From the UHGV virus genome UHGV-0324630: DNA of 37,666 nucleotides, one strand, 5' to 3'. Origin of the DNA: a virus. The notes beneath the pieces were generated by a model, which worked only from the letters and a program-made list of their open reading frames with translations, made no database searches and was not told the origin of the DNA. The translations under genes and the position numbers were made by a program. Shown here one piece after another: positions 18,762-36,702 of the stretch (position 1 is its first letter; each line of letters begins with the position of its first letter).

Positions 18762-19085
18762 GTGAGCACCATTCAAACAGGGATCACAGAGCAGGTTATT
18801 GCGTGGCTCTTTGACCACCTGCCAACGGTGTATGCAGTAGGCGCGGCGGTCAGCATTTCCGCGCTGATGAGTCTTTATGACGGACGAACTCTGGTTCAGA
18901 CCGTAACGGGATCGCTGGCGTGCGGCGTTCTTGCCATGGCCGTGGCCGGGTCGTTGCGCTTCTTCGGTTTTCCTGAAGATGCCGTGACGTTTATCGGCGC
19001 ATCAATCGGTTTTATGGGTGCAGAGAAAGCACGCGACAAGGTTATTGCGGCCTTTAATCGCAGGGTGAAGGAGAAGGACGAATGA
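18762..19085 (+). CDS. Holin (P2 gpY-like position)
   Basis: GTG start with GGGGGA RBS; about 107 aa with hydrophobic helices (VIAWLFDHLPTVYAVGAAVSISALM; GSLACGVLAMAVAGSL) and a charged C-terminus; the long N-terminal extension in the track (from 18543) overlaps gpL/gpX and is rejected. Confidence 0.7.
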   Translation: MSTIQTGITEQVIAWLFDHLPTVYAVGAAVSISALMSLYDGRTLVQTVTGSLACGVLAMAVAGSLRFFGFPEDAVTFIGASIGFMGAEKARDKVIAAFNRRVKEKDE

Positions 19086-19474
19086 GCAACACATTTAAAT
19101 TCAGCAGCCGGAGCGAAAAGAATTTGCAGGGCGTAAATCCTGATCTGGTGAAAGTGACCCGACGGGCACTGGAAATCTCGGAAGTGGATTTTGGTATCAC
19201 CGAAGGGTTGCGCAGCCGTTACCGCCAGAAGCAACTGGTGGCCACGGGTAAGAGCCAGACCATGAACAGCCGCCACCTTACGGGGCATGCCGTGGATGTT
19301 GTGGCTTATATCGGCAGCCAGGTGTCATGGGAATGGCCGCTGTACGAAAAAATCGCAGCAGCATTCAGACAGGCCAGCCGGGAACTGAATATTCCGGTGG
19401 AATGGGGCGGCGACTGGAAGACCCTGAAAGACGGACCGCATTTTCAGTTACCACACGGAGCCTATCCGGCATGA
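19082..19474 (+). CDS. Endolysin, L-alanyl-D-glutamate peptidase (M15/VanY-like zinc peptidase)
   Basis: 130-aa ORF; HLTGHAVDVVAY ... WGGDW ... DGPHFQL fits the H-x6-D ... H zinc-binding pattern of M15 peptidase endolysins. Confidence 0.8.
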   Translation: MSNTFKFSSRSEKNLQGVNPDLVKVTRRALEISEVDFGITEGLRSRYRQKQLVATGKSQTMNSRHLTGHAVDVVAYIGSQVSWEWPLYEKIAAAFRQASRELNIPVEWGGDWKTLKDGPHFQLPHGAYPA

Positions 19475-19878
19475 AGCTCTGGCCCACGCTGGGCGTCGCT
19501 TTCCTTCTGATTGCCGCATGGGGAACATCCATGCGTCTGTCGTGGTCGCTGGGCCGGGAGAACGCCAGAAACGAAGCGCAGGCCAGCACCCTGAAAAGTA
19601 CCGTCGACACCCTGAATATCATCAGCGCCGGGGTACAGGATATGCAGCAGGTGCTGGCACAACTCCGCGTGGAAAATCAGCAACGCAATCAGGACGGAGA
19701 GGCCAGACGTGAACAGCTACGCAACGATATTGCAAAAGATGAATGCGCCCACGCTTTGCCTGATGCTCGTTTTACTGACAGGTTGCGCAGGCACGCTGAA
19801 CGCGCCACGGCCAGCGCCGTCAGTCCGGCTTATACCGCAGACGCTGACCATACCGGTAACGCCGCCCCCCTTCCCTGA
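19471..19878 (+). CDS. i-spanin (Rz/LysB-like): N-terminal TM anchor plus coiled-coil periplasmic domain
   Basis: ATG 19471 overlaps the endolysin stop (ATGA); MKLWPTLGVAFLLIAAWGTS then a charged, Q/R-rich helical region. Confidence 0.7.
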   Translation: MKLWPTLGVAFLLIAAWGTSMRLSWSLGRENARNEAQASTLKSTVDTLNIISAGVQDMQQVLAQLRVENQQRNQDGEARREQLRNDIAKDECAHALPDARFTDRLRRHAERATASAVSPAYTADADHTGNAAPLP

Positions 19879-20029
19879 CACTCCCACATGGGGAAATCTC
19901 GGTATATGGGGCGACCGCCTTCTGGATGCACTGGAAACCTGTAACGCGGATAAACGGGCCATTGAATTACTGGAGCAGCGCAGACTGCAACGACTGAACA
20001 ACGAGGACAACAGCCATGCTGAAAACTGA
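19739..20029 (+). CDS. o-spanin (Rz1/LysC-like outer-membrane lipoprotein) in the +1 frame, overlapping the i-spanin 3' end and the gpR start
   Basis: MNAPTLCLMLVLLTGCAG has a lipobox (LLTGC); proline-rich mature region; starts inside the i-spanin gene. Confidence 0.65.
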   Translation: MNAPTLCLMLVLLTGCAGTLNAPRPAPSVRLIPQTLTIPVTPPPFPDTPTWGNLGIWGDRLLDALETCNADKRAIELLEQRRLQRLNNEDNSHAEN

Positions 20030-20483
20030 TTCCCTGCGTGAAGCCATGACCCGTTCATGTCGATGGTGTCACGCCAACCCGGAGAAATTCACCATTTTCG
20101 TGGAGAGCGGCAACATTGAAACGACCGGAGAAACTCCCTCGTTTGTTTACCGCTATCAGATGGTGATGTTTGTCATGGATTACGCCGGGGAGCTGGACGA
20201 CCTCACGCTGCCGCTGCTGGCGTGGTTATCCGAAAATCAGCCACAGTTGTTGCTCAACCCTGAGCGTAATCAGGACATCAAATTCTCCGCCGTTATCAAT
20301 GACGATGACAGCGCCGATCTCCTGTTTACGCTCCCCCTGCGGGAACGCGTTCGCATCACGCGCAGCAGTCAGGGCACACCGCAGGCAGAACACCTGCCGG
20401 AGCCAAAACCCCGTCTGCCCTCTTCCGAAGGCGACTGGTCGCATGTATTCCAGGATGTGACGTGGGGTGAAAGCGATGGATAA
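20016..20483 (+). CDS. R: Tail completion protein, P2 gpR-like
   Basis: 155-aa ORF, same length and position as P2 gpR. Confidence 0.8.
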   Translation: MLKTDSLREAMTRSCRWCHANPEKFTIFVESGNIETTGETPSFVYRYQMVMFVMDYAGELDDLTLPLLAWLSENQPQLLLNPERNQDIKFSAVINDDDSADLLFTLPLRERVRITRSSQGTPQAEHLPEPKPRLPSSEGDWSHVFQDVTWGESDG

Positions 20484-21111
20484 GGCATTCACCCGCGTGG
20501 ATGAAACCTTTGAGGCCATCCGCGACAGCCTGAATCAGCAGGCCATCAATAACATCGCCAGAAAGCTGGCACAGGATTTACGTCGCGCCCAGCAGGCACG
20601 TATCCGGTCACAGAAAGCGCCGGACGGGACCGCATGGACACCACGCAAACGCCGTGTAACCCGGATACAGGAACGCATTCGCTTTATCTGGAATAACGAA
20701 GCACGCACGCTGAAAAACTGGCATCACGACACGGGGAAATACGGGCGAACCATCACCGGGTGGGATGAGGATAAAAACAACATCCGCACGTTTTACCGGG
20801 ATGACATCGACCGCTTTCTGGAAATACGCACCCGGCGCATCAACCAGGACAGCACAAAGCGCGTCCCCATGTTCGTAAAACTGCGCACCGCCCGCTACCT
20901 GAAAGCCCGTGCAGATGCTTCCGGTGTGACGGTGGGTTACAGCGGCGTGGCCGCACGTATTGCCCGCGTTCATCAGTTCGGTGAGCGCGATCAGGTTGCG
21001 CCGGGCATTTTCACCGATTACCCGGTACGTGAGTTGCTGGGTATCAGCCAGGCAGATGAGCGCCTGATTTATAACACGGTGCTGGGCCGGATTGCGGAGG
21101 CTGTACGGTGA
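20476..21111 (+). CDS. S: Tail completion / virion morphogenesis protein, P2 gpS-like, apparently with a ~60-aa central insertion
   Basis: N-terminal ...QQARIRSQKAPDGTAWTPRKR and C-terminal MFVKLRTARYLKARAD...ARIARVHQFGERD resemble the gpS family; 211 aa from ATG 20476 versus about 150 aa for P2 gpS (from memory). Confidence 0.75.
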   Translation: MDKAFTRVDETFEAIRDSLNQQAINNIARKLAQDLRRAQQARIRSQKAPDGTAWTPRKRRVTRIQERIRFIWNNEARTLKNWHHDTGKYGRTITGWDEDKNNIRTFYRDDIDRFLEIRTRRINQDSTKRVPMFVKLRTARYLKARADASGVTVGYSGVAARIARVHQFGERDQVAPGIFTDYPVRELLGISQADERLIYNTVLGRIAEAVR

Positions 21112-21689
21112 GCGCAGAACTCATGCGACTGCTGAGCAATATCATCCGCACCGGGATCATCTCTGAAGTTGATGAGAAGTCCTGGCGCGTGCGCGTTCGC
21201 AGCGGCGAACTGGAAACAGGCTGGTTGCGCTGGAACACCACGCGCGCGGGAGCCTTCAATGTGTGGCTGCCGCCATCACCAGGCGAACAGGTGGCAATTG
21301 CCTGCATTGGCGGCAACCCGGAAACCGCCATGATAATTGGCAGCCTGTGGAGTGATGCCAATCCGGCCCCCGGCAAAAGCCTGAAAGAAATCGTGGTCAG
21401 CGCGCCGGACGGCGCGGTGTTCCGCTACGACGCGGACGCAGGCGCACTGAGTGCCAGCGGCATGAAAACGGCCACTTTGCAGGCATCCGTCAGCGTGAAA
21501 CTGGATACGCCCGTCGTGGAATGCACAAACCTTCTGAAAACAGCCGAGATTGACGTCACAAAAGGGGGAAAGATGAGCGGCAATATCACGCACAGTGGCG
21601 GCGATTTCACCTCAAACGGCATCACAGTGCATACGCATAAGCACGGTGGCGTTAAAGGTGGCAGCGATTCGACAGGAGGCCCGCAGTGA
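21108..21689 (+). CDS. V: Baseplate assembly protein V (spike), P2 gpV-like
   Basis: GTG start with GGAGG RBS; IIRTGIISEVDEKSWRVRV...GEQVAIACIGG...VECTNLLKTAEIDVTKGGKMSGNITHSGGDFTSNGITVHTHKHGG aligns with P2 gpV from memory. Confidence 0.88.
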   Translation: MSAELMRLLSNIIRTGIISEVDEKSWRVRVRSGELETGWLRWNTTRAGAFNVWLPPSPGEQVAIACIGGNPETAMIIGSLWSDANPAPGKSLKEIVVSAPDGAVFRYDADAGALSASGMKTATLQASVSVKLDTPVVECTNLLKTAEIDVTKGGKMSGNITHSGGDFTSNGITVHTHKHGGVKGGSDSTGGPQ

Positions 21690-22036
21690 CAACCCGCTAC
21701 ACAGGAATGAACCAGGACGGAACGGGAAACCTGAACGATATGGAGCACCTGAAACAGTCAGTCAGGGACATCCTGACCACCCCGCTGGCAAGCCGGGTTA
21801 TGCGACGGGAATATGGCAGCCTTGTGCCTGATTTGATTGACGAACCCATGAATAACACCACGCGTCTGCAATGCATGAGTGCTGCCGTGATTGCACTGAC
21901 ACGATGGGAACCCCGCATTGCCCTGGATGCCATCGACGTTGTCTGGAAAGCGGGAGGCCGCGCCGGGGTGACGCTGTCGGGCACTGTCATGCAGACCATG
22001 CAGAATGTTGAATTAACCATCACGCTGAGGGAGTAA
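21686..22036 (+). CDS. W: Baseplate wedge protein W, P2 gpW-like (gp25-like)
   Basis: MTTRYTGMNQDG...SRVMRREYGSLVPDLIDEP resembles P2 gpW (MTARYLGMNRSDG...SRVMRRDYGSL) from memory. Confidence 0.88.
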   Translation: MTTRYTGMNQDGTGNLNDMEHLKQSVRDILTTPLASRVMRREYGSLVPDLIDEPMNNTTRLQCMSAAVIALTRWEPRIALDAIDVVWKAGGRAGVTLSGTVMQTMQNVELTITLRE

Positions 22037-22039
22037 ATC

Positions 22040-22936
22040 ATGCCCGCCGTTGACCTTTCACAGTTACCGGAACCCGCCATCATCGCGGAGCCTGACTTTG
22101 AAGCAATTCTGGCTGACACAAAGGCCATGATGATTGCGGCTTATCCCGCCGAACAGCGTGAAGCCGTCTCCGCCGCGCTGGAACTGGAATCAGAACCACT
22201 GAACGTTATCGCTCAAACCATGTCTTTTCGTGAAATGCTGTTACGCCAGCGGGTCAATGAGGGTGCACGCGCCTGCATGTTAAGCCACAGCGTCGGGACA
22301 GACCTGGACAACCTCGCGGGCAATATGAACACAAAGCGCCTGGTTATCACTCCGGCAACGGATACCACCGACGCGGTGATGGAAAGCGACACCTCGCTGA
22401 GACTGCGGGCGCAACGGGCGTATGACGGTCTGAGTGTTGCTGGCCCGTCAGGCGCATACGAGTATTTTGCACGCAGCGCCAGCGGTCTGGTACGCGACGC
22501 GCGAGCCATCAGCCCGTCTCCGGCCAACGTGACGGTTTCCATTCTGTCCACTGAAGGCGACGGCACAGCAACGGAGGCGTTGCTTAATACCGTTCGCGCC
22601 GTTCTGAATGCAGAGGATACCCGCCCGGTGGCCGACCGCCTGACGGTACAGAGCGCCAGAATCGTGACATGGCGGCTGAATGCAAAACTGTTCTTTTACC
22701 CCGGCCCGGAATCCGAACCTATTCTGGCTGCGGCGGAATCGTCGTTCAGGAAGTGGCTGGCTGAGCAGGGGCTTATCGGTCAGGACGTGGCGCTGTCAGC
22801 CATTGCTGCCGCACTGCATGTGCACGGCGTGCAACGCGTGGAGATAATCGAACCCACACAGAATATGGCCATCAGCGACATACAGGCGGCGCGCTGTGAG
22901 TCATTCACCATCAGCGAAGGTGGGCGTAATGAGTAA
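22040..22936 (+). CDS. J: Baseplate protein J, P2 gpJ-like
   Basis: 298-aa ORF with GAGGGAG RBS; position and length match gpJ. Confidence 0.88.
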   Translation: MPAVDLSQLPEPAIIAEPDFEAILADTKAMMIAAYPAEQREAVSAALELESEPLNVIAQTMSFREMLLRQRVNEGARACMLSHSVGTDLDNLAGNMNTKRLVITPATDTTDAVMESDTSLRLRAQRAYDGLSVAGPSGAYEYFARSASGLVRDARAISPSPANVTVSILSTEGDGTATEALLNTVRAVLNAEDTRPVADRLTVQSARIVTWRLNAKLFFYPGPESEPILAAAESSFRKWLAEQGLIGQDVALSAIAAALHVHGVQRVEIIEPTQNMAISDIQAARCESFTISEGGRNE

Positions 22937-23456
22937 TTCACTGTTACCGCCATCAGCCAGCAGTTTCATGCGTTGTGCCGAAGCCGTCGGGACACGCATT
23001 ACAGACATTCCGGTAGACCTCAACACGCTGTGGTCGCCGGATACCTGCCCGGTGCATCTGCTGCCTTATCTCGCCTGGGCATTTTCCGTTGACCGCTGGG
23101 ATCGCAACTGGCCGGAAGAGACAAAGCGACAGGTGATTCGTGATGCATGGCTGATACACCGACACAAGGGAACCATCAGCGCACTGCGCCGGGCCATTGA
23201 GCCGCTGGGATATCTCATTCGTGTGTCTGAGTGGTGGGAGTTCGACGGCGAACCCGGAACATTCAAGGTTGATGTTGGCACGCTGGACAGTGGTGTGACC
23301 GAGGAAATGTATCTGGAAATGGAACGGCTGATTGCCGATGCCAAACCCGCAAGTCGCCACCTTATCGGCCTGAACATTATCCAGGACATTCCTGGCTATC
23401 TGTATACAGGCGGTGTGGTCTGTGATGGTGATGTTATTACTGTTTATCCCGGATAA
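22929..23456 (+). CDS. I: Baseplate/tail protein I, P2 gpI-like
   Basis: Start taken at ATG 22929; ...LWSPDTCPVHLLPYLAWAFSVDRWDRNWPEETKRQVIRDAWLIHRHKGTISALRRAIEPLGYLIRVSEWWE closely resembles P2 gpI from memory. Confidence 0.85.
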   Translation: MSNSLLPPSASSFMRCAEAVGTRITDIPVDLNTLWSPDTCPVHLLPYLAWAFSVDRWDRNWPEETKRQVIRDAWLIHRHKGTISALRRAIEPLGYLIRVSEWWEFDGEPGTFKVDVGTLDSGVTEEMYLEMERLIADAKPASRHLIGLNIIQDIPGYLYTGGVVCDGDVITVYPG

Positions 23457-23466
23457 GTGAGAAACA

Positions 23467-26124
23467 ATGAGCACGAAATTTAAAACCGTTATCACTACTG
23501 CCGGAGCCGCGAAGCTGGCAGCCGCCACTGTCCCCGGCGGGAAAAAAGTAACTCTGTCTGCAATGGCCGTGGGTGACGGTAATGGCAAATTGCCGGTGCC
23601 GGATGCCGGTCAGACGAAACTGGTGCATGAGGTCTGGCGTCACGCTCTGAATAAAGTCAGCGTGGATAACAAGAATAAAAACTATATCGTGGCTGAACTG
23701 GTTGTACCGCCAGAAGTGGGCGGCTTCTGGATGCGTGAGCTGGGTCTGTATGACGATGCCGGAACACTGATTGCGGTCGCTAACATGGCGGAAAGCTATA
23801 AACCTGAACTCGCTGAAGGCTCCGGGCGCGCGCAGACCTGCCGCATGGTTATTATTGTCAGCAACGTGGCGTCCGTTGAGCTGAGTATTGATGCCAGCAC
23901 AGTGATGGCGACGCAGGATTACGTCGATGACAAAATCGCAGAGCATGAGCAATCCCGCCGCCATCCTGACGCCACGCTGACAGAAAAAGGTTTTACTCAG
24001 TTAAGTAGCGCAACAAACAGCACCAGTGAAGAGCTGGCGGCAACGCCAAAGGCAGTAAAAGCAGCCTATGACAATGCTGAAAAACGTATGCAGAAAGACC
24101 AGAACGGTGACGATATTCCAGATAAGGGCGCTTTTCTGGACAATGTTGGCGTTACCAGCCTGACGTTTATGAAAAACAATGGCGAAATGCCGCTTGATGC
24201 TGACTTGAATACATTTGGTCCCGTTAAGGCTTATCTTGGCATCTGGTCTAAAGCAACATCCACCAACGCAACACTGGAGAAAAATTTCCCGGAAGATAAT
24301 GCTGTCGGTGTGCTTGAGGTTTTTGCAGCTGGCAATTTTGCAGGCACGCAACGTTTTATCACGAGAGACGGCAATGTATACATGCGTAAACTCGCCAATA
24401 AGTGGAATGGCACTGATGGTCCGTGGGGCGTATGGCGTCACACTCAATCAGCTACCCGCCCTTTGAGTACGACTATAGACCTGAATACGCTTGGAGCCGC
24501 TGAGCATCTTGGTTTATGGCGTAACAGTAGCTCGGCTATAGCTTCATATGAACGCAATTATCCAGAGGAAGGCGGCTTTGCTCAGGGGACGCTTGAGATC
24601 CTCGAAGGCGGGAATTATGGAAGAACGCAACGTTATACCACTCGTCGTGGGAATATGTACGTTCGCTGCCTTGCGGCAAGCTGGGATGCATCAAATCCGC
24701 AGTGGGAACCGTGGTTAAGAGTCGGTCATCAGTCAGAGAGCCGTTATTACGAAGGTGATTTGAATGTTCTAACCGACCCCGGTATTTACAGTGTTACAGG
24801 AAAGGCGACAAACGGTCCGATGCTGGACGCTGCTGGGGCGACATTGCTTGGGATACTGGAAGTAATCAGGCGTTTTGATGGTGTATCTGTCTGGCAGCGT
24901 TACACAACCACAGGAAAATCAGAAACCACACAGGGGCGCACTTTTGAGCGCGTCTACGCCGGGAGCACATGGACCGAATGGCGAGAAGTGTATAACTCCT
25001 TTTCGTTGCCCCTGAATATGGGGATCGGTGGCGCAGTGGCAAAACTCACCAGCCTGGACTGGCAGACCTACGATTTTGTGCCGGGCAGTCTGATAACCGT
25101 TCGGCTTGATAACATGACCAATATTCCCGACGGTATGGACTGGGGCGTCATTGATGGCAACCTGATAAACATCGCTGTTGGTCCGAGTGATGATTCCGGT
25201 ACGGGGCGCTCAATGCATGTATGGCGCAGCACTGTAAGTAAAGCGAATTACCGCTTTTTTATGGTTCGCATTTCAGGAAATCCGGGAAGCCGCACGATTA
25301 CGACAAGACGTGTGCCAATTATCGACGAAGCTCAGACATGGGCGGCGAAACAGACATTCAGCGGTGGTCTTTCTGGCGAACTATCCGGCAATGCTGCTAC
25401 AGCAACAAAGCTGAAAACGGCAAGGACAATTAACGGCGTAAAATTTGACGGCTCGGCAAATATTGAAGCGTTTCCGCCAGGTGTTCCGCTGCCGTGGCCA
25501 TCAGATACTGTGCCGTCTGGTTACGCCCTGATGCAGGGACAGACTTTTGATAAATCTGCATACCCGAAACTTGCAGTCGCTTATCCGTCAGGCGTGATCC
25601 CGGATATGCGTGGCTGGACAATCAAGGGCAAACCCGCCAGTGGTCGGGCCGTATTGTCTCTGGAACAGGACGGCATTAAATCGCACACCCACAGTGCCAG
25701 CGCATCCAGTACGGATTTGGGTACGAAAACCACATCGTCGTTTGATTACGGTACTAAATCAACGAATAACACAGGTGCACATACCCACAATGTATCTGGT
25801 ACTGCAAATAGTGCTGGCGCACATACTCATACCGTTCCATTAAGGAGACCAAACAGTGGCGGTATGAATTTCGACTGGCTGGATGGTGCATCAAGTGGCA
25901 CGGTGGTGGGGAATGGAACTGTGCCTTCTTCTGGCGCACATACCCACTCAGTATCAGGTACCGCTACAAGTGCTGGGGCACATGCACACACTGTTGGTAT
26001 TGGCGCTCATACGCACTCTGTTGCGATTGGTTCACATGGACACACCATCACCGTTAACGCTGCTGGTAACGCGGAAAACACCGTTAAAAACATCGCATTT
26101 AATTATATTGTGAGGCTTGCATAA
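23467..26124 (+). CDS. H: Tail fibre protein, P2 gpH-like N-terminus with a divergent C-terminal receptor-binding region carrying His-rich GAHTH repeats
   Basis: 885-aa ORF; conserved N-terminus [40 protein letters not shown]; C-terminal repeats [22 protein letters not shown] / [40 protein letters not shown]. Confidence 0.88.
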
Positions 26125-26741
26125 TGGCATTCAGAATGAGTGAACAATCACGTACTGTAAAAATTTATAACCTGCTGGCCGGAACTAATGAGTTTATTGG
26201 TGAAGGTGACGCATATATTCCACCTCATACAGGGCTGCCAGCCAATTCTACAGATATCGCCCCACCGGAAATTCCTGCTGGCTTTGTGGCAGTTTTTAAC
26301 AGTGAAAATGAATCGTGGAATATTGTTGAAGACCATCGTGGTAAAACGGTCTATGACGTGGCATCGGGGGACGCGTTGTTTATTTCTGAACCCGGACCGC
26401 TACCAGAGAATGTCACCTGGTTGTCGCCAGCAGGGGAGTATCAGAAGTGGGACGGCGTATCCTGGGTGAAGGATGAGGAAGCAGAAAAACTGTTTCGGAT
26501 ACGGGAAGCGGAAGAGAAAAAGGCAAGGTTGATCCAGGAAGCAACAGATAACATCGCAATTCTGCAGGATGCAGTTAATCTTGAAATAGCAACAAACGAG
26601 GAAAATTCACAACTGGATTCCTGGAGAAAATACAGAGTATTAGTGAGTAGAATTGACACCAGTACAGCTCCGGATATCGTATGGCCAGAGCTGATGAATC
26701 AGGGTTATGTGCGGGAGGACGAGCAGATAACTTCAGACTGA
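26124..26741 (+). CDS. G: Tail fibre assembly chaperone (Tfa/gpG-like)
   Basis: 205-aa ORF, ATG overlaps the H stop (TAATG); sits directly after the fibre gene. Confidence 0.8.
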
Positions 26742-27268
26742 AATTTAGTGATGAATGTTGAATCATCTGGAATATCATGCAATACCAATGCATGAGCACC
26801 TATTGTGACATTGTTTCCTATACGCACTTTGCCACCAAGAATGGTGGCATTACAACCAATGGTCACATTATGTCCTATAACAATATCCATATCATTAAAA
26901 TCACCACGCAGCCCAATAGTTACCCCTGGTTTTATTGAACAATTTTCACCGATTGTTACTTTGTGACCGATAACAACACTGTTGAGATAAGAAATATCAA
27001 AGCCTTTCCCTATATTTACAGTTAAAGGGACTGTTACATTATATTTATCAAGAATGAAACGTTCTATTTTCCCCGCAATCTTCCGACAGTATCCGCCTTT
27101 ATCAAAAAGGTATTTGGCTATGCGCCACCAAAATAAATAACGAACTCTTCTATGTTTTATTGCGCGAACAATTGCCTTTCGCCAGGAGAAAGGACGCTCG
27201 CTACCGATTACTTCATAGTGAATACAATCTTTAAGTTCATTAATATTCATATCTCTATTATTCAGCAT
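26705..27268 (-). CDS. Hexapeptide-repeat (left-handed beta-helix) acyl/acetyltransferase; AT-rich cargo gene at the position of the P2 Z/fun locus
   Basis: 187-aa ORF; tandem hexapeptide repeats [21 protein letters not shown]...[34 protein letters not shown] typical of LacA/Maa/WbbJ-type transferases; convergent with and overlapping the tfa 3' end. Confidence 0.8.
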
Positions 27269-27391
27269 AAGATAATCATGTGACCAATTATTGTAATAAT
27301 TTTAATGGTATGTTTCTACTGGCTATCCAGCGTGTCTGATGTCCAGTAACAAATCGTTAACACTGGTGCAATCAAATGGTGAGTGTTAAGA

Positions 27392-27431
27392 CTGGCCACT
27401 TATTACCAGGTATGAGGGTATGAGTGGCCAG
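27392..27431 (-). terminator. Stem-loop (9-bp stem CTGGCCACT/AGTGGCCAG) immediately downstream of gpU on the minus strand; no clear U-tract
   Basis: Perfect 9-bp inverted repeat with about 22-nt loop, read directly. Confidence 0.3.
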
Positions 27432-27438
27432 CATTAAA

Positions 27439-27933
27439 TCAGAACAGCCCTTTAACTGAACTGGCCGCGCTGTTAAGGGATGATGTCACTTTATCTTTGA
27501 AGCCGGACAGCATATCGCTGAACGATGAGGATTGCAGGCGCTCCCGCAAATCCTCATCACAGCGTTCAAGGGTCAGTGAAAATTCTATCTTTTTCGCCTT
27601 ACCGTAGCGATCAAACTCGGAACGGGTCGTATTCGTTTCGGTCAGGACATACATGCCGTAAATCTGCCCGACGCCATCAATAAGAGGCCAGGGGCGTCCT
27701 GTATACGCCTGCGTGGTCAGCAGCGACAGCGACACTTCGCCACCTGTAATTTCAGGATAAAGCACACCAGAAAGAACGATGCGATCATCACCTGCACCGA
27801 TATACTGCCAGCTTGCTGAACGGTTAACGCGTTCATTTTTCACATGCCGCCAGCTTTTGTTTTGCTGTAACTGCTGATGCGGCAGCGTGCGCAGCTCAAA
27901 AACAAACATGCCGTAGATCATCATCATGGCCAT
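27439..27933 (-). CDS. U: Tail protein U, P2 gpU-like
   Basis: MAMMMIYGMFVFELRTLPHQQLQQNKSWRH...VLYPEITGG...WPLIDGVGQIYGMYVLTE resembles P2 gpU from memory. Confidence 0.85.
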   Translation of the reverse strand: MAMMMIYGMFVFELRTLPHQQLQQNKSWRHVKNERVNRSASWQYIGAGDDRIVLSGVLYPEITGGEVSLSLLTTQAYTGRPWPLIDGVGQIYGMYVLTETNTTRSEFDRYGKAKKIEFSLTLERCDEDLRERLQSSSFSDMLSGFKDKVTSSLNSAASSVKGLF

Positions 27934-27939
27934 GACTCC

Positions 27940-30783
27940 TCAATCTTTATCGTAAAAACTGCCACGCCCGGCACGGGCGCGCCGTTCCATTTCTGCCCTG
28001 ACCATTTCACCGACCAGTTTCGCCAGTTCGCGGGGATTCTGCGTAACAACGTTATGCAGATGAACATGAATTTCACCACCAAATCCGGAGGCAACAGGCT
28101 CCCGGTTACGGGAAGTTACAGGAACTGATGCCACTGGAGATCGTATGGCCTCCGCCACCGGGCGGGAGCTGGCCGCAACAACAGGGACCAGCGCCGGAGG
28201 CAGCGGAGCCGGGACCACGGGTGTGATATTAATTGCGGGGGCAGGCTTACTGACCTGCGCAATCTTCCGCTCCTGCCACTCTCCACGAACAGCAAGTGCG
28301 CGGGGCAGGTTCTTAAAGACAATATCGCCGGGGCCAATGCGTTTTTTCGTCTCATCAACCAGCTTACCTGTGTTATCAGCAATTTTGCTGAGTCTGCGTA
28401 GCGTCCCGGTATTGCTGTCTGTGAGCGGTTTGTTGTCTTTGGGTTTATTACCTCCGGTGCCATTGCCATTTTCCACAGGCTTCGGCGGATTGATTTTCGC
28501 CAGGTCACCCTGAAGCAAGGCAACCTTGTCCTGAAGAATGGCCGCACGCTGTGCGTCTTCGATTTTCTTGCGCGCTCTTTCCGCTTCATCCGGAAGGACG
28601 CCAAGTTTTTCAAGTATCCACGCCAGCGTATCCAGTAGCATTTTTGCAGGTGTCAGAACAAGCTGTAACGCACCGCCAAGAACGTTACCGAATATCTCGC
28701 CAGCACTGGTACATTTATCCAGCGTTTCCTTGCTGGACTCCATCGGTGACAGCAGCGATTTAAACCAGTTAAACACCTGGCTGATCCCGCTTCCGATTGT
28801 GTCAAAAACAGGACCAAACCGTTCAAAGGTTTCGCGCAACGGGGTCAGCCTTTCCATAATCCCGCTGAACACCCCGGCAAAAAATGCCCTGATGGGATCC
28901 CAGTATTTCCAGATAAGAACGGCAGCTCCGGCAAGCGCAGCCACGATAAGACCAACCGGACTGAACAGCGCCCCGATAGCGCCTCCCAGTAAAGAAACGG
29001 AACCCGTCACCATTCCCCACAGCGCAGGCAACACCCTGACGACATTCATTGACCGGGTAAGAATGTCAAAACCAAGACGCAGGGTGGCCAGCTTCCCGTA
29101 AAGCACCCCAATAACCAGCGACAACGAGCCAATCGTTGCAGTCATTGCCAGCAACGCACCGCCTGCTATCAGTAGCTGGCGCGTCAGTACCGGATGGGCC
29201 TGCGCCAGCGAGGTGATTTTTTCAAGCACCCGCGTGAGCCACTGCGTGACAGAACGCAGCGGACCGTCAACCAGATCACTGATGCGAATACGAAGACCTT
29301 CCCATGCGCTGTCGAGATTTTTCAGGTCCCCATCAAGATTATCGGCCATTACTTTTGCGACGCGATCGGCCTCTCCCCTTGCCCCCTGCAATTCTCTGGT
29401 CAGTTTTTGCAGCTCTCCTGAACCAGCCGCCGCAACAAGCGTCTGCAAACCAACGAACGCCTCTTCTCCGGCGATGTCCTTGAAGAAGGAAACCTGGTCC
29501 ACCTGTCCGTATTTTTGTGTCGCCTTATAGAGATCAAGCAGCACATCCTCCATCGGGCGCATTTTGCCTCTGGCGTCAGCAACTGACACCCCCAGCTCTT
29601 TCAGTGCATCAGCCGCAGCTTTTGGCGGTGATGCAAGGCGGGACAGACTTGCGCGCATGGCCGTACCAGCATCGCTTCCGCGAAGACCATTATTGGCAAG
29701 CATCCCGGCCATGGCTGCCGCTTCTTCAAGACTGATACCAAGTTTTGCGGCAACCGGACCGGTATACTTCATGGTTTCGCCCAGCGCGCGTAAATCAGTA
29801 TTGGTCCGGGTGAATGCTGCTGTCAGCGTATCGCCAACACGGTCCATTTGATCGGCTGTCAGGTTGAACTGTGTGAGGATATTGGAGCCTATATCAGCCG
29901 TCTCGCCGAGTTCGACGCCACCTGCCAGCGCCATATTAAGAACACCGGGCAATGCGGCCTGAATGGCCTGCGGAGTAAAACCAGCCATTGCCAGAAAGCT
30001 CTGCCCACTGGCGGCATCACTCGCAGTAAACTGTGTTTCAGAGCCAAGTTTTAACGCCTGCTCACGCAGCGCCTTAAACTGCGGGCTGTTTTTGTCGATT
30101 CGCGTCAGTGCCTGAACACGGGACATCTCTTTGCCGAACCCGATCGCAGGCTGCAAAAAACGCCCGGCAGCATAGCCGCCCGCCGTTGCCGCACCAATTG
30201 CCAGCGCACCACCTGTTTTCAGTTTTCCCGCTGTTTCCTGCGCGCGCGAATACCGCTCACGCGCCCGTGTTACACGCGCAAGCGCCTGCCGTTCGCGTTC
30301 AAGCTGGTTGTTGTACTGTTCGGTGCGTCTGATGGCCTGCTGGATGGTGTTATCGCTGCCTGTCAGGGAAATGCCGTGGCGTTTCAGCTCTCCGCCAAGC
30401 TCCCGCATTTTCTGAATTTCCCGTGTGCGCGATTCATTCAGGCGTTCAAGCCGGGTGCTTAACTGCTGCATCAGCTTTTGTTGTTTTTCGCTGAGCACTG
30501 TACCCGTGCGTTGTAACTGATTAAGGGCGTTAAGCTGGCGTCGTGCTTTCAATATGCCAGCATCCGCTTTACTGACAGCGTCACGGGCGCGCTCAAATGA
30601 ACGCGCCTGACGCTCGAGATTTTTGATCGCCCCCTGCGTTCGCTGGATGGAGTCACCAAACTGCCCCATCAGGCGGCGGGCGTTTTCGGCAGGCCGGGTC
30701 AGCCTGTCAACGGCGCTGAAAGCGACCCGGATGTCAAGAGTCTTCATTGTCTGCATTCCCGCTGCGAAGTGCCGCCCGCTCAC
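27940..30783 (-). CDS. T: Tail tape measure protein, P2 gpT-like
   Basis: 947-aa ORF; long coiled-coil N-terminal half, Gly/Ala-rich hydrophobic central segments, position between E/E' and U. Confidence 0.88.
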   Translation of the reverse strand: MSGRHFAAGMQTMKTLDIRVAFSAVDRLTRPAENARRLMGQFGDSIQRTQGAIKNLERQARSFERARDAVSKADAGILKARRQLNALNQLQRTGTVLSEKQQKLMQQLSTRLERLNESRTREIQKMRELGGELKRHGISLTGSDNTIQQAIRRTEQYNNQLERERQALARVTRARERYSRAQETAGKLKTGGALAIGAATAGGYAAGRFLQPAIGFGKEMSRVQALTRIDKNSPQFKALREQALKLGSETQFTASDAASGQSFLAMAGFTPQAIQAALPGVLNMALAGGVELGETADIGSNILTQFNLTADQMDRVGDTLTAAFTRTNTDLRALGETMKYTGPVAAKLGISLEEAAAMAGMLANNGLRGSDAGTAMRASLSRLASPPKAAADALKELGVSVADARGKMRPMEDVLLDLYKATQKYGQVDQVSFFKDIAGEEAFVGLQTLVAAAGSGELQKLTRELQGARGEADRVAKVMADNLDGDLKNLDSAWEGLRIRISDLVDGPLRSVTQWLTRVLEKITSLAQAHPVLTRQLLIAGGALLAMTATIGSLSLVIGVLYGKLATLRLGFDILTRSMNVVRVLPALWGMVTGSVSLLGGAIGALFSPVGLIVAALAGAAVLIWKYWDPIRAFFAGVFSGIMERLTPLRETFERFGPVFDTIGSGISQVFNWFKSLLSPMESSKETLDKCTSAGEIFGNVLGGALQLVLTPAKMLLDTLAWILEKLGVLPDEAERARKKIEDAQRAAILQDKVALLQGDLAKINPPKPVENGNGTGGNKPKDNKPLTDSNTGTLRRLSKIADNTGKLVDETKKRIGPGDIVFKNLPRALAVRGEWQERKIAQVSKPAPAINITPVVPAPLPPALVPVVAASSRPVAEAIRSPVASVPVTSRNREPVASGFGGEIHVHLHNVVTQNPRELAKLVGEMVRAEMERRARAGRGSFYDKD

Positions 30784-31263
30784 GCCAGCTAACCACTTCG
30801 CCGGGCGTCATCATGAAGATTTCGGCGGGCGACCAGTTAAAAATGGCGGCAATATCCGCCACCAGATCTTCGATGTGCTCAAAGCACACCAGGGTGATTA
30901 CGCTGCCGTCTCCTGCACGCTCTTCGCGCCAGAGTCTGGCTCGCTCATAAAATTTACAGCCACAGCGCACAACTGAATAAAATCGCGTGACGACATTTTT
31001 TTAATCATCACTTCATCCAGTCGTGGCGAGGTCACGCGAGGCAACAGCGTGAACATGGTATCCGCTTTCAGATTCAGCACATCAGACAGCGACAGACCAC
31101 GCAGGGATCCAGCCTGCTCAATAGCCCCGGTGATCTCCACATACGTGATTTTTTCGCCACCACGCTCAATTGGTCGGGTCAGTTTTACGCCACGCTCGCT
31201 GGTTTCTTTCACAGTGTCAGCAACGACCGTATTTTCGGTATCGATGTTTTTCGTCACTTTCAT
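30734..31263 (-). CDS. Tail assembly chaperone gpE+E' (predicted -1 programmed frameshift product)
   Basis: The -1 frame is open from inside the A7 run to 30734 and overlaps the tape measure start, the classic G/GT, E/E' arrangement. Confidence 0.6.
30898..31263 (-). CDS. E: Tail assembly chaperone gpE
   Basis: 121-aa ORF downstream of the tube gene; its 3' end holds an A7 slippery run and overlaps a -1-frame ORF (E'). Confidence 0.8.
   Translation of the reverse strand: MKVTKNIDTENTVVADTVKETSERGVKLTRPIERGGEKITYVEITGAIEQAGSLRGLSLSDVLNLKADTMFTLLPRVTSPRLDEVMIKKMSSRDFIQLCAVAVNFMSEPDSGAKSVQETAA
30996..31002 (-). promoter_or_regulatory. Candidate -1 ribosomal frameshift (slippery) site: A7 on the coding strand (AUU AAA AAA AUG)
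   Basis: Seen directly as T7 on the plus strand; the -1 frame carries a TAA just upstream and is open only from within the A-run. Confidence 0.5.
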
Positions 31264-31317
31264 CAGGAAACTCCTTTCAGTCAGAGGCGACGCACTGCGC
31301 CGCCTGCATATTACTTA

Positions 31318-31830
31318 TCAGCCAAGCCCGAGCGCGGAACGGATGCGATCGGGCACAATGTCCTTGCCGTCCTTCCGGTAAATGAAGTTCAGCAGGTCAA
31401 TCTCCCACAACGGGCGATCGTTAACACTCAGCTTGTAGTAGGTGTTTTTAATGGCGTAAGTGTGTGATGTGGCTTCGCCCTGTTTGGCTTCCCCCATATC
31501 AATTTCCGTCACACGTCCGCGCATTTCGACTTCATACAGGTCGCTTTCATCATCGGTGTAGTATTCACCCGCAAAACGCAGTAGCGTGCCGTCAATCGTG
31601 CCGCCATACTTCAGGAACAGCTCACGAACTGCGCCCCCCATGACAAAGCTCGCATCAAGCGCGGAGTCGTCCAGACCGAGATCAATACTTACCGCCCCCA
31701 TCATGCCACCACCCCGGTAGCTGTCGGTTTTGCGCGTCAGTTTAGGCAGGGTGACGGACGTCACCTTACCCACTTCGTTTTCACCATCCACAAACAGCGT
31801 AAAAAAGCGAAGATGTTTTGGTACAGCCAT
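31318..31830 (-). CDS. FII: Tail tube protein, P2 gpFII-like
   Basis: 170-aa ORF immediately downstream of the sheath gene on the minus strand. Confidence 0.88.
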   Translation of the reverse strand: MAVPKHLRFFTLFVDGENEVGKVTSVTLPKLTRKTDSYRGGGMMGAVSIDLGLDDSALDASFVMGGAVRELFLKYGGTIDGTLLRFAGEYYTDDESDLYEVEMRGRVTEIDMGEAKQGEATSHTYAIKNTYYKLSVNDRPLWEIDLLNFIYRKDGKDIVPDRIRSALGLG

Positions 31831-33014
31831 CAGGCACCTCCCAGCACCGCAAATGCGGGACCAAAGAATTCATCAGTAAACGACTGGTAAAGCTCCATGT
31901 CTTCCAGCGGAGGAACGGGCGTATATTTGTAGCGAATACGCACACGCCCCTGACGTAAATTCGTGGTGCTGTTATCCACGATGTCATACCAGCACTCCGC
32001 GCCAATCAGTTTCCCGGCAGTAACCAGTGAATCCAGTTTTGCCCTGATGGCACTGATAACATCCTTCACGTTCGCAGGCGTCAGTGGACTGTCGATGGTT
32101 TCAAACTGCGCTTCCGCAATTGAATCAGCCAGCACCTGTGCAGTTCGGGTATACACCTCAAAGATGTAGGCGTTCGTTTCCGGTGTGCGGTTGCCCCAGA
32201 AGCGGAACCCGTTGCGACGAATAATGGTCGTGATTTCTTTGTTGTTGAGGCTGTTGGCATCGCTGTCTTCGGCCTGCAACGACCAGAACACATGCCTGGA
32301 CATCCCCAGCACATTTTTAACCGGAACATTGGACAGTGATTTGTGCCATCCCTGCTCATGGTCAATGTACGCACGAAGGCCGCACGCATAGGCAGGCGCG
32401 GGGAACGTTTCGTTTTTGCCACTTTTCGGGTTGTAGGCGATGAAGTCCGGCCATAAGAGCATCACCTCACGTTCATTGAATTTCTGGCGGTAGGTAATCG
32501 CCTCAGCCATCGTGTTACAGCCGTGACATGAGGCATACACAAACGCGCGCAGTTTACCCGCAATCACGCACAGGGATTTTGTTACCGCCTCCGTATCCAG
32601 CTCCGGCGCGGCCAGAATACGCGGACGGTATCCGATGCTTTCATCCTGCTCTGCAACAAGCAGCGCATACATCCCCGTATAGCTGCCGTCAGATTCAGAA
32701 CCACCGATAACCAGTTGATCCTGCGTTTTTCCGTCTTCTTCTTTGTGTTCAGCCACGCGAACGACGATCACCTTTGTGCTCACCTGGTCTGCGATGGCCT
32801 TAAGCGCACGATAAAGCGTCCCCGTTGTTCCGCATTTTCCCAGCACGTCATTGACGCGGGTCAGCAGTGTGGGCTTGTTCAGCGGGAACAGCTCCGCGTC
32901 CGCATCATCCGCCATTGCCACGATACCGATAACACTGGAATCAACATCATTAATCGCTGTTACCAGGTCGGTACTTTCCGTAACACGGGCACCATGAAAA
33001 CGAGTTTCACTCAT
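31830..33014 (-). CDS. FI: Contractile tail sheath protein, P2 gpFI-like
   Basis: 394-aa ORF; size and position match P2 FI (about 396 aa). Confidence 0.9.
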   Translation of the reverse strand: MSETRFHGARVTESTDLVTAINDVDSSVIGIVAMADDADAELFPLNKPTLLTRVNDVLGKCGTTGTLYRALKAIADQVSTKVIVVRVAEHKEEDGKTQDQLVIGGSESDGSYTGMYALLVAEQDESIGYRPRILAAPELDTEAVTKSLCVIAGKLRAFVYASCHGCNTMAEAITYRQKFNEREVMLLWPDFIAYNPKSGKNETFPAPAYACGLRAYIDHEQGWHKSLSNVPVKNVLGMSRHVFWSLQAEDSDANSLNNKEITTIIRRNGFRFWGNRTPETNAYIFEVYTRTAQVLADSIAEAQFETIDSPLTPANVKDVISAIRAKLDSLVTAGKLIGAECWYDIVDNSTTNLRQGRVRIRYKYTPVPPLEDMELYQSFTDEFFGPAFAVLGGA

Positions 33015-33171
33015 AGCTTCAGCCCCTTGTATCCGTTAAATGATTCGGCAACAATCATCACCCACCACGCGCGTAATCTCACCCCTGCGCCGTTCTCCCG
33101 ACCCGGCGACAACAAAAAGCAGTAACCCCCTCCGCACGCACATGCGACCATGCCGCACAGGGAGGGAACAG

Positions 33172-34281
33172 ATGACCGATACCACCATGCAATTGCTCAG
33201 TCAGGGCACAGACCCCGTGAAAATGCCGGATTTTGATATTCTCGCGGAGGGTAAAACGCTGTCAGGCGTGGCAGAGCGCCTGATGAGCCTGTCACTGACC
33301 GACAACCGGGGATTTGAGGCGGACCAGCTCACCATCACGCTGGATGATGCGGATGGTCAGTTGCAGCTACCGCCACGGGGCGCGCGCCTGACGGTTCTCA
33401 TTGGCTGGAAAGGAGAACCGCTGACAGAAAAAGGCACTTACATTGTTGATGAAATCGCTCACGAAGGACCGCCGGACAGGCTGACTGTTTCAGCCAGAAG
33501 CGCAGATTTTCGGGATGAATTTAACGTTAAACGTGAAGTGTCCTGGCATGATGTGACCGTTGAGCGCGTGGTATCCGCCATCGCTCATCGGTATGGTCTG
33601 AAACCGCAAATCAGCGAAATGCTGATGGATATCGAAATCGACCACGCCGACCAGACCGAAGAAAGCGACATGTCCTTCCTCACGCGCATGGCGGAAATGC
33701 TGGGCGCAATCACCACGGTAAAAAGCGGTAACCTGTTATTCATCATGCCCGGCGGTGGCGTGAACGCACAGGGCCAGCCGTTGCCCTCGTTCGCCATCAC
33801 ACGCAGCAGCGGCGATCGCCATCAGTTCCGCATTGCTGACCGCGAAGCGTATACGGGGGTACGCGCTTACTGGCTTGATCTTAATTACGGGAAAAAGAAA
33901 AAAGTCAGCGTGAAACGCCGCAAACCGCCAAAACCCAAAAAGGAGAAAAGCAGCAGCCGTGAAGGTGATTATATGGAAGGCGCAGAAGGCAATGTGTTTG
34001 TGTTACGCAAGACTTATCAGAACGAGCAGGCAGCAAGACGCGCAGCGGCGGCAAAGTGGCAGCAGCTACAACGCGGAGCCGCATCATTTTCCATCACGCT
34101 GGCGCGTGGACGTGCAGAACTCTACCCCGAAATGCATGGCACGGTAACAGGATTTAAAAGCGAGATTGATAATCAGGACTGGATTATTGCAAAAGCCGAG
34201 CACACTATTGATGACAGTGGCTTTACCACACAGCTTGAGCTTGAAGCAAAAATCCCGGAATGGATAGCGGAAACAGAATGA
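33172..34281 (+). CDS. D: Tail/late control protein D, P2 gpD-like
   Basis: Start taken at ATG 33172 (GGAGGG RBS); about 369 aa. The track's upstream extension from 33040 overlaps the sheath-gene upstream region and is rejected. Confidence 0.88.
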   Translation: MTDTTMQLLSQGTDPVKMPDFDILAEGKTLSGVAERLMSLSLTDNRGFEADQLTITLDDADGQLQLPPRGARLTVLIGWKGEPLTEKGTYIVDEIAHEGPPDRLTVSARSADFRDEFNVKREVSWHDVTVERVVSAIAHRYGLKPQISEMLMDIEIDHADQTEESDMSFLTRMAEMLGAITTVKSGNLLFIMPGGGVNAQGQPLPSFAITRSSGDRHQFRIADREAYTGVRAYWLDLNYGKKKKVSVKRRKPPKPKKEKSSSREGDYMEGAEGNVFVLRKTYQNEQAARRAAAAKWQQLQRGAASFSITLARGRAELYPEMHGTVTGFKSEIDNQDWIIAKAEHTIDDSGFTTQLELEAKIPEWIAETE

Positions 34282-34680
34282 GCAAATTAGATGTATTGAC
34301 TCAAACCAGAACTGACACACTCACAGCACAGTGCCAGACCCAATCTGGCAGCCCGCTTTGTGCCTAGAGCAGGTGTTGCTTATGTAACAGTTAATCCACG
34401 GATAGTGGTCATGAATGCTGGTTGAAGTTGTATTGCCATGAGTGGTCAATTAGGGACTCACTTATTATCGCGTGCTCACCATTGATGGGTAAGATCATGC
34501 ATTTCGGCTACTGTACTTCGCGAATCCTCCACACACAGGCAACACCTGATTTAAGAACAGAGGGAGATGATGACGCAAGGAAGATTTATTATCGTGCATG
34601 TGGCAGATGATCTTTTAGCTGCCGGAGTGATAAATTACACCTATTTTCGATAAGTGTTTTTGTTATAGAACATTAATTTC

Positions 34681-35820
34681 GTGGGAAACAATAAAGTGAA
34701 ATTAGGAAGAAATGATAAGTGCTGGTGTAATTCAGGACTTAAGTATAAAAAGTGCCATCTTGGTCGAGACCGTGAAACTCCGGTATCCAAAGCCGAGGCA
34801 CTGAAATTTTCAAAGTCTCTCTCGCAGAGAAAGGCATGTTATGCGCCAGCATCCATGCACGAAGATTGTGATAAACGCATCGTTCAGGCGCATACGATAT
34901 CTAAGAGCAGTAGCCTTAAGGCGATCGCCGACTCCAGCAATCACGTCATGGGGGTGATAATGAACTTAGCAAGCCTGATGAGAAACAACGGAAAATGGCT
35001 TCCCGAGAAGATCGGTATCAATCAGGCATCCACTTTTACAGGATTTTGTGCAGTTCATGACAGAATCTTGTTTTCATGCCTAGAGAACGAAAAATTTACA
35101 GGCACGGACGAGCAGTGCTTTGCCTTAATGTTTCGTTCATTGTCTAAAGAAATTTACGCCAAAGAAGGGGGAGTGCTATCTTCCGATTTTGCTAAAAATG
35201 CCGATAAAGGAAAGCTACAAGTTGAACAGTATTATATTCAGAAATTAATCGACCAGCACCAAAGTGGCTTAAATGCAGCAATAATTGAATTAAATAATCT
35301 TAAAACTAGCCTCGACCGCATCCTACTTAGCAGGCAATTTTCAGAAATTGAAAGTGTTATCTTCACTTTTGCAGAGCCTTTACCAATTGTAGTTTCGTCA
35401 ATTCTTTCACCGGAGAGGGATTTCGATGGGACCAAAATTCAGGATTTGAGCGATCTTACAGTGTCGGCGGAACAAGTATGTTTCAATGCTTTTTCCTGCG
35501 GAGGTAAGGGATATGTAGTGTTCAGTTGGCTGAGAACTTCAACAATTATCAGACGTTTTATACGGACACTAATTAAGATCCCGGCTAACAGGATGTTCAA
35601 TACCCTTCTGTATTTTTTCTTCACAAAGGCCGAAAATACATATTCATCCCCTGAGTGGTGGGACAGGCTCAGTGATAAACAGCGAGAGAATATCGGCAAC
35701 ATGATTATGTCAGGGGTTGAATTTTTTGGCAGACCTACATCACAGGTTGATCATTCCGTTGATTATAACGCCGCTGCACTTGAAGAGATAACATGCAGCA
35801 ACAACGAAATTTGCAGCTGA
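34681..35820 (+). CDS. Uncharacterised protein with N-terminal SEC-C-like zinc-binding motif (C-W-C-x8-C-H); AT-rich cargo gene inserted between gpD and ogr
   Basis: 379-aa ORF (GTG start, start uncertain; alternative GTG at 34696); N-terminal KCWCNSGLKYKKCH; rest unrecognised; strongly AT-rich with about 400 bp and about 290 bp non-coding flanks. Confidence 0.65.
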   Translation: MGNNKVKLGRNDKCWCNSGLKYKKCHLGRDRETPVSKAEALKFSKSLSQRKACYAPASMHEDCDKRIVQAHTISKSSSLKAIADSSNHVMGVIMNLASLMRNNGKWLPEKIGINQASTFTGFCAVHDRILFSCLENEKFTGTDEQCFALMFRSLSKEIYAKEGGVLSSDFAKNADKGKLQVEQYYIQKLIDQHQSGLNAAIIELNNLKTSLDRILLSRQFSEIESVIFTFAEPLPIVVSSILSPERDFDGTKIQDLSDLTVSAEQVCFNAFSCGGKGYVVFSWLRTSTIIRRFIRTLIKIPANRMFNTLLYFFFTKAENTYSSPEWWDRLSDKQRENIGNMIMSGVEFFGRPTSQVDHSVDYNAAALEEITCSNNEICS

Positions 35821-36109: not shown

Positions 36110-36370
36110 ATGTTCCGTTGTCCGCTTTGTGGCGCATCTGCCCGAATCCGCACCAGTCGTCCGGAAAACGATTCAAACACTGTGCGGCAAAAGTATTACC
36201 AGTGTAACAACCTGGAATGCGGCGTATGCTTCTCAACACTGGAAGCTTTCCATAAATTCACATCAAAACACGCCTCCGGCGTTCACTCTTCGGAAGGTAT
36301 CCCGTGGCATGAGCTGCCAGCTTCACACAGGGGAAACAATCAGATGAGTTTGCCTTTACCTCAGAATTAA
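36110..36370 (+). CDS. ogr: Ogr/Delta-family zinc-finger late-gene transcription activator
   Basis: MFRCPLCGASARIRTSR...QKYYQCNNLECGVCFSTLE matches the P2 Ogr pattern (MFHCPLCQHAAHARTSR...RYHQCQNVNCSATF, from memory): C-x2-C ... C-x4-C zinc finger. Confidence 0.85.
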   Translation: MFRCPLCGASARIRTSRPENDSNTVRQKYYQCNNLECGVCFSTLEAFHKFTSKHASGVHSSEGIPWHELPASHRGNNQMSLPLPQN

Positions 36371-36561: not shown

Positions 36562-36702
36562 ATGTCGCAAAAATCGCTTACGGCCATCACGTTCTGCGTG
36601 ACGGTAATCCTCATCATCTGGATGCTACACGGTTCGCTGTGTGAAATACGGATGAGCTTCTGGGGAGCGGAGTTTGCGGCGTTCTTACAGTGTAAGCAGT
36701 AA
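36562..36702 (+). CDS. Hok/Gef-family type I toxin (small membrane toxin)
   Basis: 46-aa ORF with AAAGGAG RBS: MSQKSLTAITFCVTVILIIWMLHGSLCEIRMSFWGAEFAAFLQCKQ; N-terminal TM helix then the SLCEIR motif characteristic of Hok/SrnB/PndA; not in the ORF track (below 60 aa). Confidence 0.8.
   Translation: MSQKSLTAITFCVTVILIIWMLHGSLCEIRMSFWGAEFAAFLQCKQ

Follow-up and report, generated by a model that had tools for sequence, protein, structure and literature searches.

The window, the whole 37,666-nucleotide stretch of virus genome UHGV-0324630 that was analyzed, is by its sequence a P88-like prophage of Escherichia coli (Xuanwuvirus, Peduoviridae) with short host flanks. Between positions 27439 and 33014 it carries a block of P2-like tail genes, FI to U, on the minus strand, followed by gene D on the plus strand; this arrangement, pointed out in an initial annotation, is borne out by the open reading frame (ORF) listing and by Pfam. 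Gene assignments were made from the ORF listing and Pfam, and start positions were compared with the RefSeq annotation, produced by the Prokaryotic Genome Annotation Pipeline (PGAP), of an identical prophage in E. coli strain E5. The block, D and the late activator gene comprise the following features.

27439-27933, minus strand: gpU, tail protein (PF06995, 5.5e-39; start in the E5 RefSeq annotation, 27927)
27940-30783, minus strand: gpT, tape measure protein (PF10145, 1.6e-56)
30734-30970, minus strand: E', in the -1 frame relative to E and overlapping the end of E (PF06528, Phage_P2_GpE, 2.1e-12)
30898-31263, minus strand: gpE, tail assembly chaperone (PF10109, 4.6e-4, below the Pfam cut-off; assigned also from position and a tblastn match to P2 E)
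31318-31830, minus strand: gpFII, tail tube (PF04985, 1.3e-47)
31830-33014, minus strand: gpFI, tail sheath (three sheath domains, PF04984, PF22671 and PF17482)
33172-34281, plus strand: gpD, baseplate hub or late control D protein (PF05954, 5e-17)
36110-36370, plus strand: Ogr/Delta-family zinc-finger late activator (PF04606, 5.1e-14)

The P2-like contractile-tail late module is thus complete in the window (gpFI, gpFII, gpE/E', gpT, gpU and gpD, by Pfam), and each tail-gene assignment of the initial annotation is matched by a Pfam domain. The sheath protein is 97.5% identical to that of P88, gpD is 96.7-99.5% identical to the D proteins of Xuanwuvirus, and the translated Ogr homologue contains a CX2CX22CX4C motif. 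The true start of gpT is likely the ATG at 30747, the start called by PGAP in the identical E5 prophage and favored by the sequence. The E/E' pair, read from its overlapping frames as a frameshift pair, is kept on the minus strand; E' is probably reached by a programmed frameshift, for which A_AAT_TTT near 30953-30947 is a candidate slippery heptamer.

The order within the FI-U block is that of the canonical series H-G-(cargo)-FI-FII-E-T-U-D-ogr, although the window departs from the single-strand arrangement of that series. The P2 gene order given in the initial annotation is correct: in P2 (NC_001895), FI, FII, E, E+E', T, U, D and ogr all lie on the strand of the V-G operon. Comparison of the window with P2 by blastn shows the same relationship, with the I/H segment aligning forward and the FI segment in reverse. 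The synteny check proposed in that annotation was run, and 186, PSP3 and phiCTX are colinear like P2, with FI to D on the same strand as H-G; ENT90 of Erwinia and Firavirus also keep FI-D colinear. Both ENT90 and Yersinia vB_YenM_42.18, with ~50% FI identity, are arranged as in P2. The description of the block as opposite to the other late operons holds for the O and V-G operons and for D, which are on the plus strand, but not for P-Q (12254-15051), which is also on the minus strand, as is the P-Q late operon of P2.

The inverted layout extends well beyond this genome. Megablast of positions 26000-35000 returned Xuanwuvirus phages that are 91-97% identical over 27434-34300, namely, P88, 500465-2, 520873, 503458, P884B11, PhiR44_2, Chuche and Citrobacter phiSM, and the P88 annotation has the same layout gene by gene, with U-T-E'-E-FII-FI on the minus strand and D on the plus strand. 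In two of these records, NC_049344 (520873) and NC_049341 (503458), IS100 (IS21-family) insertions lie under the tail-block match, which is broken at the sheath and tape measure genes; these may be defective prophages. A wider survey, in which phage records were searched with the FI and D proteins and the coordinates were compared, found the divergent FI/D pair in Enterobacter phiT5282H (Novemvirus), in Klebsiella ST16-OXA48phi5.4, 3LV2017 and the Kp48xx series, in Serratia KSP20, and in Salmonella SEN4/SEN5 (Senquatrovirus), in which FI is just 55% identical.

The GTDB set, with one genome per species, contains 57 loci encoding an FI relative. The layout is inverted in 25 of 25 loci with FI identity of at least 69%, spanning 13 enterobacterial genera (Salmonella, Citrobacter, Edwardsiella, Enterobacter, Kosakonia, Symbiopectobacterium, Mixta, Pantoea, Erwinia, Izhakiella, Kluyvera, Trabulsiella and Serratia), and colinear in all 32 loci with FI identity of 48% or less. 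A 226-kb contig labelled as the Gram-positive Vagococcus sp. WN89Y (NZ_JBQPOM010000071.1) carries a P88-type prophage with an FI 97% identical to that of the window; contamination or a mislabelled assembly is most likely. IMG/VR holds 80 contigs with FI identity of at least 98%, and D is divergent from FI in all 78 that include D. In IMGVR_UViG_2654587728_000014, the P88-type T ends at residue 454 and is followed by unrelated DNA and by a second U and T C terminus on the other strand, which makes the contig either a two-copy prophage recombinant (a chimera) or a misassembly. No colinear close relative was found in the GTDB set of 25, in the IMG/VR set of 78 or in any phage record with FI identity of at least 55%.

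Among complete E. coli genomes, the FI/D junction is present at an identity of at least 95% in 1,358 of 5,426 (about a quarter), and the P2-type U-D junction is present in 1,571 of the same 5,426; the two layouts, inverted and textbook, are therefore about equally frequent in E. coli. The recurrence of the junction in these 1,358 genomes, and in independently sequenced phage genomes, leaves practically no room for the orientation to be an assembly artefact of the window. Because the arrangement is normal in the closest relatives, it is a trait of the clade rather than a rearrangement peculiar to this genome, an outcome that the initial annotation had named as one that would tell against a rearrangement. 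Its own interpretation, a fixed lineage-specific arrangement or ancient inversion and not a switch, is not contradicted by this outcome, and the closest phages, the distant genera and the 25 GTDB and 78 IMG/VR loci agree in supporting it.

A switch would require that the block be a segment flipped by a site-specific recombinase, with the window showing one of two states. Such enzymes are present nearby in relatives: P88 and several others carry a serine DNA invertase gene adjoining U, and ENT90 carries a DNA invertase gene adjoining FI. In the window, however, there is no invertase gene, the acetyltransferase gene described below occupying the position of the P88 invertase, and the invertase core AAACC-NN-GGTTT is absent throughout. 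In P88, this core occurs at 23833 and 26904 only, where it flanks the fiber segment instead of the tail block. The initial annotation had seen no inverted repeats at the block boundaries and had proposed searching these for recombinase sites. The best inverted match between the boundaries scores 11 compared to 9.3 +/- 1.5 for shuffled sequences, 19% of shuffles being as good, and direct similarity between the boundaries does not exceed that of shuffled controls either; the search for recombinase sites likewise found no invertase crossover sites at the block edges. Near-identical copies in both orientations were not found, with 0 colinear copies in the genome, IMG/VR and phage-record sets, and more than 100 close relatives are all in one orientation. 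Flipping of the block would, in addition, part D from any promoter. As flanking repeats, invertase sites and relatives in the opposite orientation are all lacking, the block is not a switch, and the chance that it flips is very slight.

Neighbor-joining trees, built from the proteins of all loci, bear on the origin of the layout. Those for FI, T, U, D, V and W each group the inverted loci into one clade, and all outgroups are colinear, from which it follows that the inverted state is derived. The best identities between inverted and colinear loci are 55% for FI and 52% for U within the block, and 54%, 56% and 53% for D, V and W in the flanks. Block and flank genes are therefore equally diverged, which argues for inversion in place rather than import of a foreign cassette. 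We infer a single event, in which the segment comprising pF (the promoter of the P2 F operon) and FI-FII-E/E'-T-U would have been inverted in place in the common ancestor, with one breakpoint just upstream of the pF activator box and the other between U and D, after which the layout would have been inherited unchanged. The FI-U unit would then be read leftward, toward the end of the convergent H-G operon, and D would be left as a separate rightward unit, in the basic form with ogr 42-46 nt behind it.

Alternatively, a foreign FI-U cassette could have been taken up in reverse with no inversion in place. Module replacement would suit the mosaic nature of P2-like phages, the incongruence of the FII and J trees with those of the other genes, and the recombination hot spots at both edges of the block. 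This alternative is nevertheless quite unlikely. Block and flank genes are equally diverged from their colinear relatives and fall in the same clade, the geometry of the FI-proximal promoter is that of the ancestral pF, and a swapped cassette would still need to give D a promoter. An origin of the inversion in aberrant recombination by an invertase from a fiber shufflon site was also considered and was rejected; the invertase gene would then sit on the FI/D side, where none is seen.

The spacer between FI and D, which lies at the right-hand inversion junction, contains a candidate control region. P2 late promoters are Ogr-dependent, with a TGT-N12-ACA-type dyad near -55, and serve four late operons (PMC3931495). 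In the P2 annotation, pP and pO share one activator site (3057-3087), at -56 and -55 with respect to starts at 3016 and 3127. The strict TGT-N12-ACA pattern has eight matches in the window compared to 10.2 expected, none of them in late intergenic regions; it was dropped as uninformative, and a clade-specific form was adopted from a comparison of the P/O and FI/D spacers, which have in common the 22-nt element GTTCT-N12-ACAAC. The relevant features are as follows.

33015-33171, unstranded: divergent FI/D control region, 157 bp, at the right-hand inversion junction; predicted bidirectional Ogr-dependent late promoter
33092-33113, unstranded: Ogr-type box GTTCT-N12-ACAAC, the sole one in the FI/D spacer
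15114-15135, unstranded: reference copy of the box, an exact match, between the divergent P and O genes (pP/pO), with predicted starts near 15068 (minus strand) and 15181 (plus strand)
33054-33059, minus strand: predicted -10 element of pFI, GATGAT, 32 nt from the box, with a predicted start near 33046
33146-33151, plus strand: predicted -10 element of pD, GACCAT, 32 nt from the box, with a predicted start near 33159

An exact GTTCT-N12-ACAAC occurs in just two places in the window, 15114-15135 and 33092-33113; P88 has the same two places plus an extra one inside T. Across 26 loci of the inverted clade, the right half-site ACAA(C/T) always occupies the same position, and the left half-site is also recognizable in 22 of the 26, with a perfect TGT-N12-ACA in SEN4 and in a Kluyvera prophage. 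Measured from the FI start codon, the TGT is at -88 to -95 in P2, 186, PSP3 and two Yersinia elements, and the box is at -91 to -97 in the inverted clade. This match in distance identifies the FI arm of the spacer, on sequence grounds, as the ancestral pF. Hexamers with A at the second position and T at the sixth, the key pair of a -10 element, lie 30-33 nt from both ends of the box in all 26 loci, down to 55% FI identity; they read GATTAT, GATGAT or AATCAT on the FI side and GATCCT, AATCAT, GATCGT, GACCAT, AATTAT or GACGAT on the D side. In P2 pF, pP and pO, the end of the box is 45-47 nt from the start, and the pP/pO arms of the window have the same geometry, with -10-like hexamers 32 nt away on either side of the P/O box.

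These features point to a single Ogr box that would activate both FI-U and D(-ogr), the inversion having made pF bidirectional, a proposal that we somewhat favor over its alternatives taken together. The dyad-symmetric box, carried in with pF, would now lie in the middle of the FI/D spacer, adjoining D, and would drive both units as the single P/O Ogr site does in P2, forming a second copy of the pP/pO design. Through the inversion, the P2 F operon would thereby have become two divergent late units with a common activator site. Where ogr lies 42-46 nt behind D, the two are predicted to share a late transcript, just as ogr is transcribed together with the F operon in P2. The most likely arrangement is drive by this one box from the predicted starts near 33046 (minus strand) and 33159 (plus strand).

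The box could instead serve FI only, with D expressed from an independent promoter or by another route. The conserved half-site arrangement is that of pF, and variation is greater among the D-side hexamers than in the FI-side GATTAT; both points favor this reading. Several findings make such an arrangement rather improbable. A scan for sigma-70-type promoters found none (no -35/-10 pair) in the FI/D spacer, and the only plus-strand DNA upstream of D is the antisense strand of 5.6 kb of tail genes. Moreover, the D-side A and T are held at a fixed 30-33 nt over 26 loci, mirroring the pP/pO geometry of the window phage and of P2.

A third box-like site, with the plus-strand sequence GTGGTCGCTGGGCCGGGAGAAC, lies at 19542-19563 inside the lysB-like (DUF2570) gene. 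It matches the FI/D box, taken on the FI strand and with the spacer included, at 19 of 22 positions. P88 has a conserved copy at 18642-18663, and in the window an AAAAGT hexamer lies ~32 nt downstream of the site. This site may be a late promoter for R-S-V-W-J-I-H-G; S and V overlap in the window, which leaves no room for a P2-style pV.

Taken together, the layout is best read as inherited from one in-place inversion in the ancestor of a broad enterobacterial P2-like clade, with one box likely driving both promoters, and a probability of roughly 85% is assigned to this reading. Several points weigh against it. The inverted group is not a clade in the FII and J trees, which show some mosaicism. 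The survey was confined to sequences reachable from the FI query, and a colinear close relative may exist among those not sampled. The left half-site is degenerate in most members (TCT or CCT, not TGT), and the predicted leader of D is short, ~13 nt. Finally, the promoter model for this phage group is a prediction from sequence conservation and geometry.

The edges of the block hold accessory genes. The initial annotation had placed an acetyltransferase beyond U and a SEC-C protein beyond D, and Pfam identifies both. The edge features are as follows.

26705-27268, minus strand: hexapeptide-repeat (LbetaH) acetyltransferase, cargo of the G/U slot (Pfam Hexapep, 1.1e-12)
27386-27437, minus strand: hairpin directly downstream of the U stop codon (inverted repeat I17; RNA fold -24 kcal/mol, z = -3.25)
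34681-35820, plus strand: SEC-C-motif protein ("YecA family" in RefSeq), cargo of the D-ogr slot (PF02810, 2e-8)

Homology to P88 ends 5 nt past the U stop codon (27434) and ~10-25 nt past the D stop codon (34291-34306). Among relatives, the distance from U to G ranges from 66 to 3,017 nt, and that from D to ogr is 42-46 nt in most or 1.0-4.0 kb. The G/U and D/ogr slots are cargo insertion hot spots, the former being the positional counterpart of the P2 fun(Z) slot. The acetyltransferase gene is convergent with G, their 3' ends overlapping by 37 nt; the same G-acetyltransferase cassette is found in phage vB_EcoM-613R2, and the acetyltransferase form of the G/U slot is found in 136 complete E. 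coli genomes. The NCBIfam matches of the acetyltransferase, to EpsC/CysE/WcaB-like families, all lie below threshold, and PADLOC returned no defense-system match for it. The distant likeness to CysE/EpsC/WcaB suggests polysaccharide O-acetylation and possible lysogenic conversion. The SEC-C protein comprises 379 residues, with the SEC-C zinc motif in the N-terminal 27 residues and no recognizable domain in the rest, and its PADLOC and NCBIfam matches cover just its 20-residue motif; it could be an accessory or defense gene. The hairpin at 27386-27437, which has no U-run after it and lies within window-specific cargo DNA, is a possible FI-U terminator. A terminator scan found no canonical terminator after U or D and did not call this hairpin.

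The remainder of the gene map was taken from the ORF listing.

206-1207, minus strand: integrase
6481-9303, plus strand: replication protein A
12254-15051, minus strand: portal Q and terminase P
~15200-26741, plus strand: O-to-G run
23467-26741, plus strand: H and G

The mechanical ORF start of the scaffold gene O is 15173, and the ATG at 15206 is the likelier start, given the predicted pO start (~15181), a GAGGGG ribosome site and the P88 annotation. Downstream of ogr, within the prophage, an ORF of 46 residues (36562-36702) encodes a Hok/Gef-family toxin, the P88 copy of which is at 34928-35068.

Gene order and strands in the window are those of P88, both in tblastn gene strings and in the P88 annotation, and the blastn alignment with P88 covers 71% of the 37.7-kb window (host flanks included) at 94.9% identity. 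By the genus criterion used here, ICTV-level nucleotide similarity of ~70% to P88 over most of the genome, the window with its host flanks falls within Xuanwuvirus; over 27434-34300, its identity to the closest phages, P88 and other Xuanwuvirus records, is 94-97%. The chromosome of E. coli strain E5 is 100% identical to the window over two junction probes, one of 801 bp across FI/D and one of 1,201 bp across G-acetyltransferase-U, and its RefSeq annotation has the same genes on the same strands. The E5 copy adjoins the tRNA Leu-Cys-Gly cluster, beside pgsA-uvrC, according to the RefSeq annotation.

The inverted layout is standard for enterobacterial prophages of a very common group, and it can be seen in reference genomes that were deposited from 2014 on. 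An explicit description of the inversion was not found in the searchable literature, which is weak evidence, as most subscription journals lie outside it. Likewise, no description of a shared-box bidirectional pFI/pD promoter was found in that literature, and this predicted promoter is the only element that would be new, and mildly so. For annotators and synteny-based classifiers, the orientation should not be taken as a rearrangement or a misassembly; it is a clean shared derived character for the clade comprising Xuanwuvirus, Novemvirus, Senquatrovirus and related Klebsiella and Serratia phages. The shared box, if real, would represent a natural case of an operon split rescued by the symmetry of its activator site and a simple, testable case of late-gene regulation adapting to a broken operon. 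In addition, the two variable edge slots are worth mining for accessory or defense genes.

The block can be compared with several known systems. Fiber shufflons of the Hin/Gin/Cin type, found in P2-like and Mu-like phages, are present right beside the block in relatives. Those systems act on fiber genes, whereas the tail block lacks their sites and is invariant in orientation. The closest match is P88 and its Xuanwuvirus relatives (500465-2, P884B11, PhiR44_2 and Citrobacter phiSM), in which late-gene order and strands are identical to those of the window; the FI/D spacer of P88 is 157 bp, as in the window. The cargo of P88 differs, with an invertible fiber segment and a DNA invertase gene between G and U in place of the acetyltransferase gene of the window and, unlike the window, no SEC-C gene between D and ogr.

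With respect to regulation, pP/pO of P2 provides the model: one dyad box lies midway between divergent late genes, ~45 nt from box end to start, and the P/O and FI/D spacers of the window are built alike. The FI/D case differs from P2 pP/pO in being a prediction and in having a left half-site of TCT rather than TGT. The F operon of P2 (pF-FI-FII-E-E'-T-U-D, then ogr) has its genes and their internal order in common with the window, along with the overlapping E/E' frames, an Ogr-family activator gene downstream of D, and an Ogr-type box equally far from the start codon of FI, although the FI proteins of P2 and the window are only ~45% identical. The main difference between the two is that in the window the segment from pF and FI to U is inverted relative to H-G and D, which splits the operon, sets D apart as a divergent unit of its own and makes FI-U convergent with H-G.

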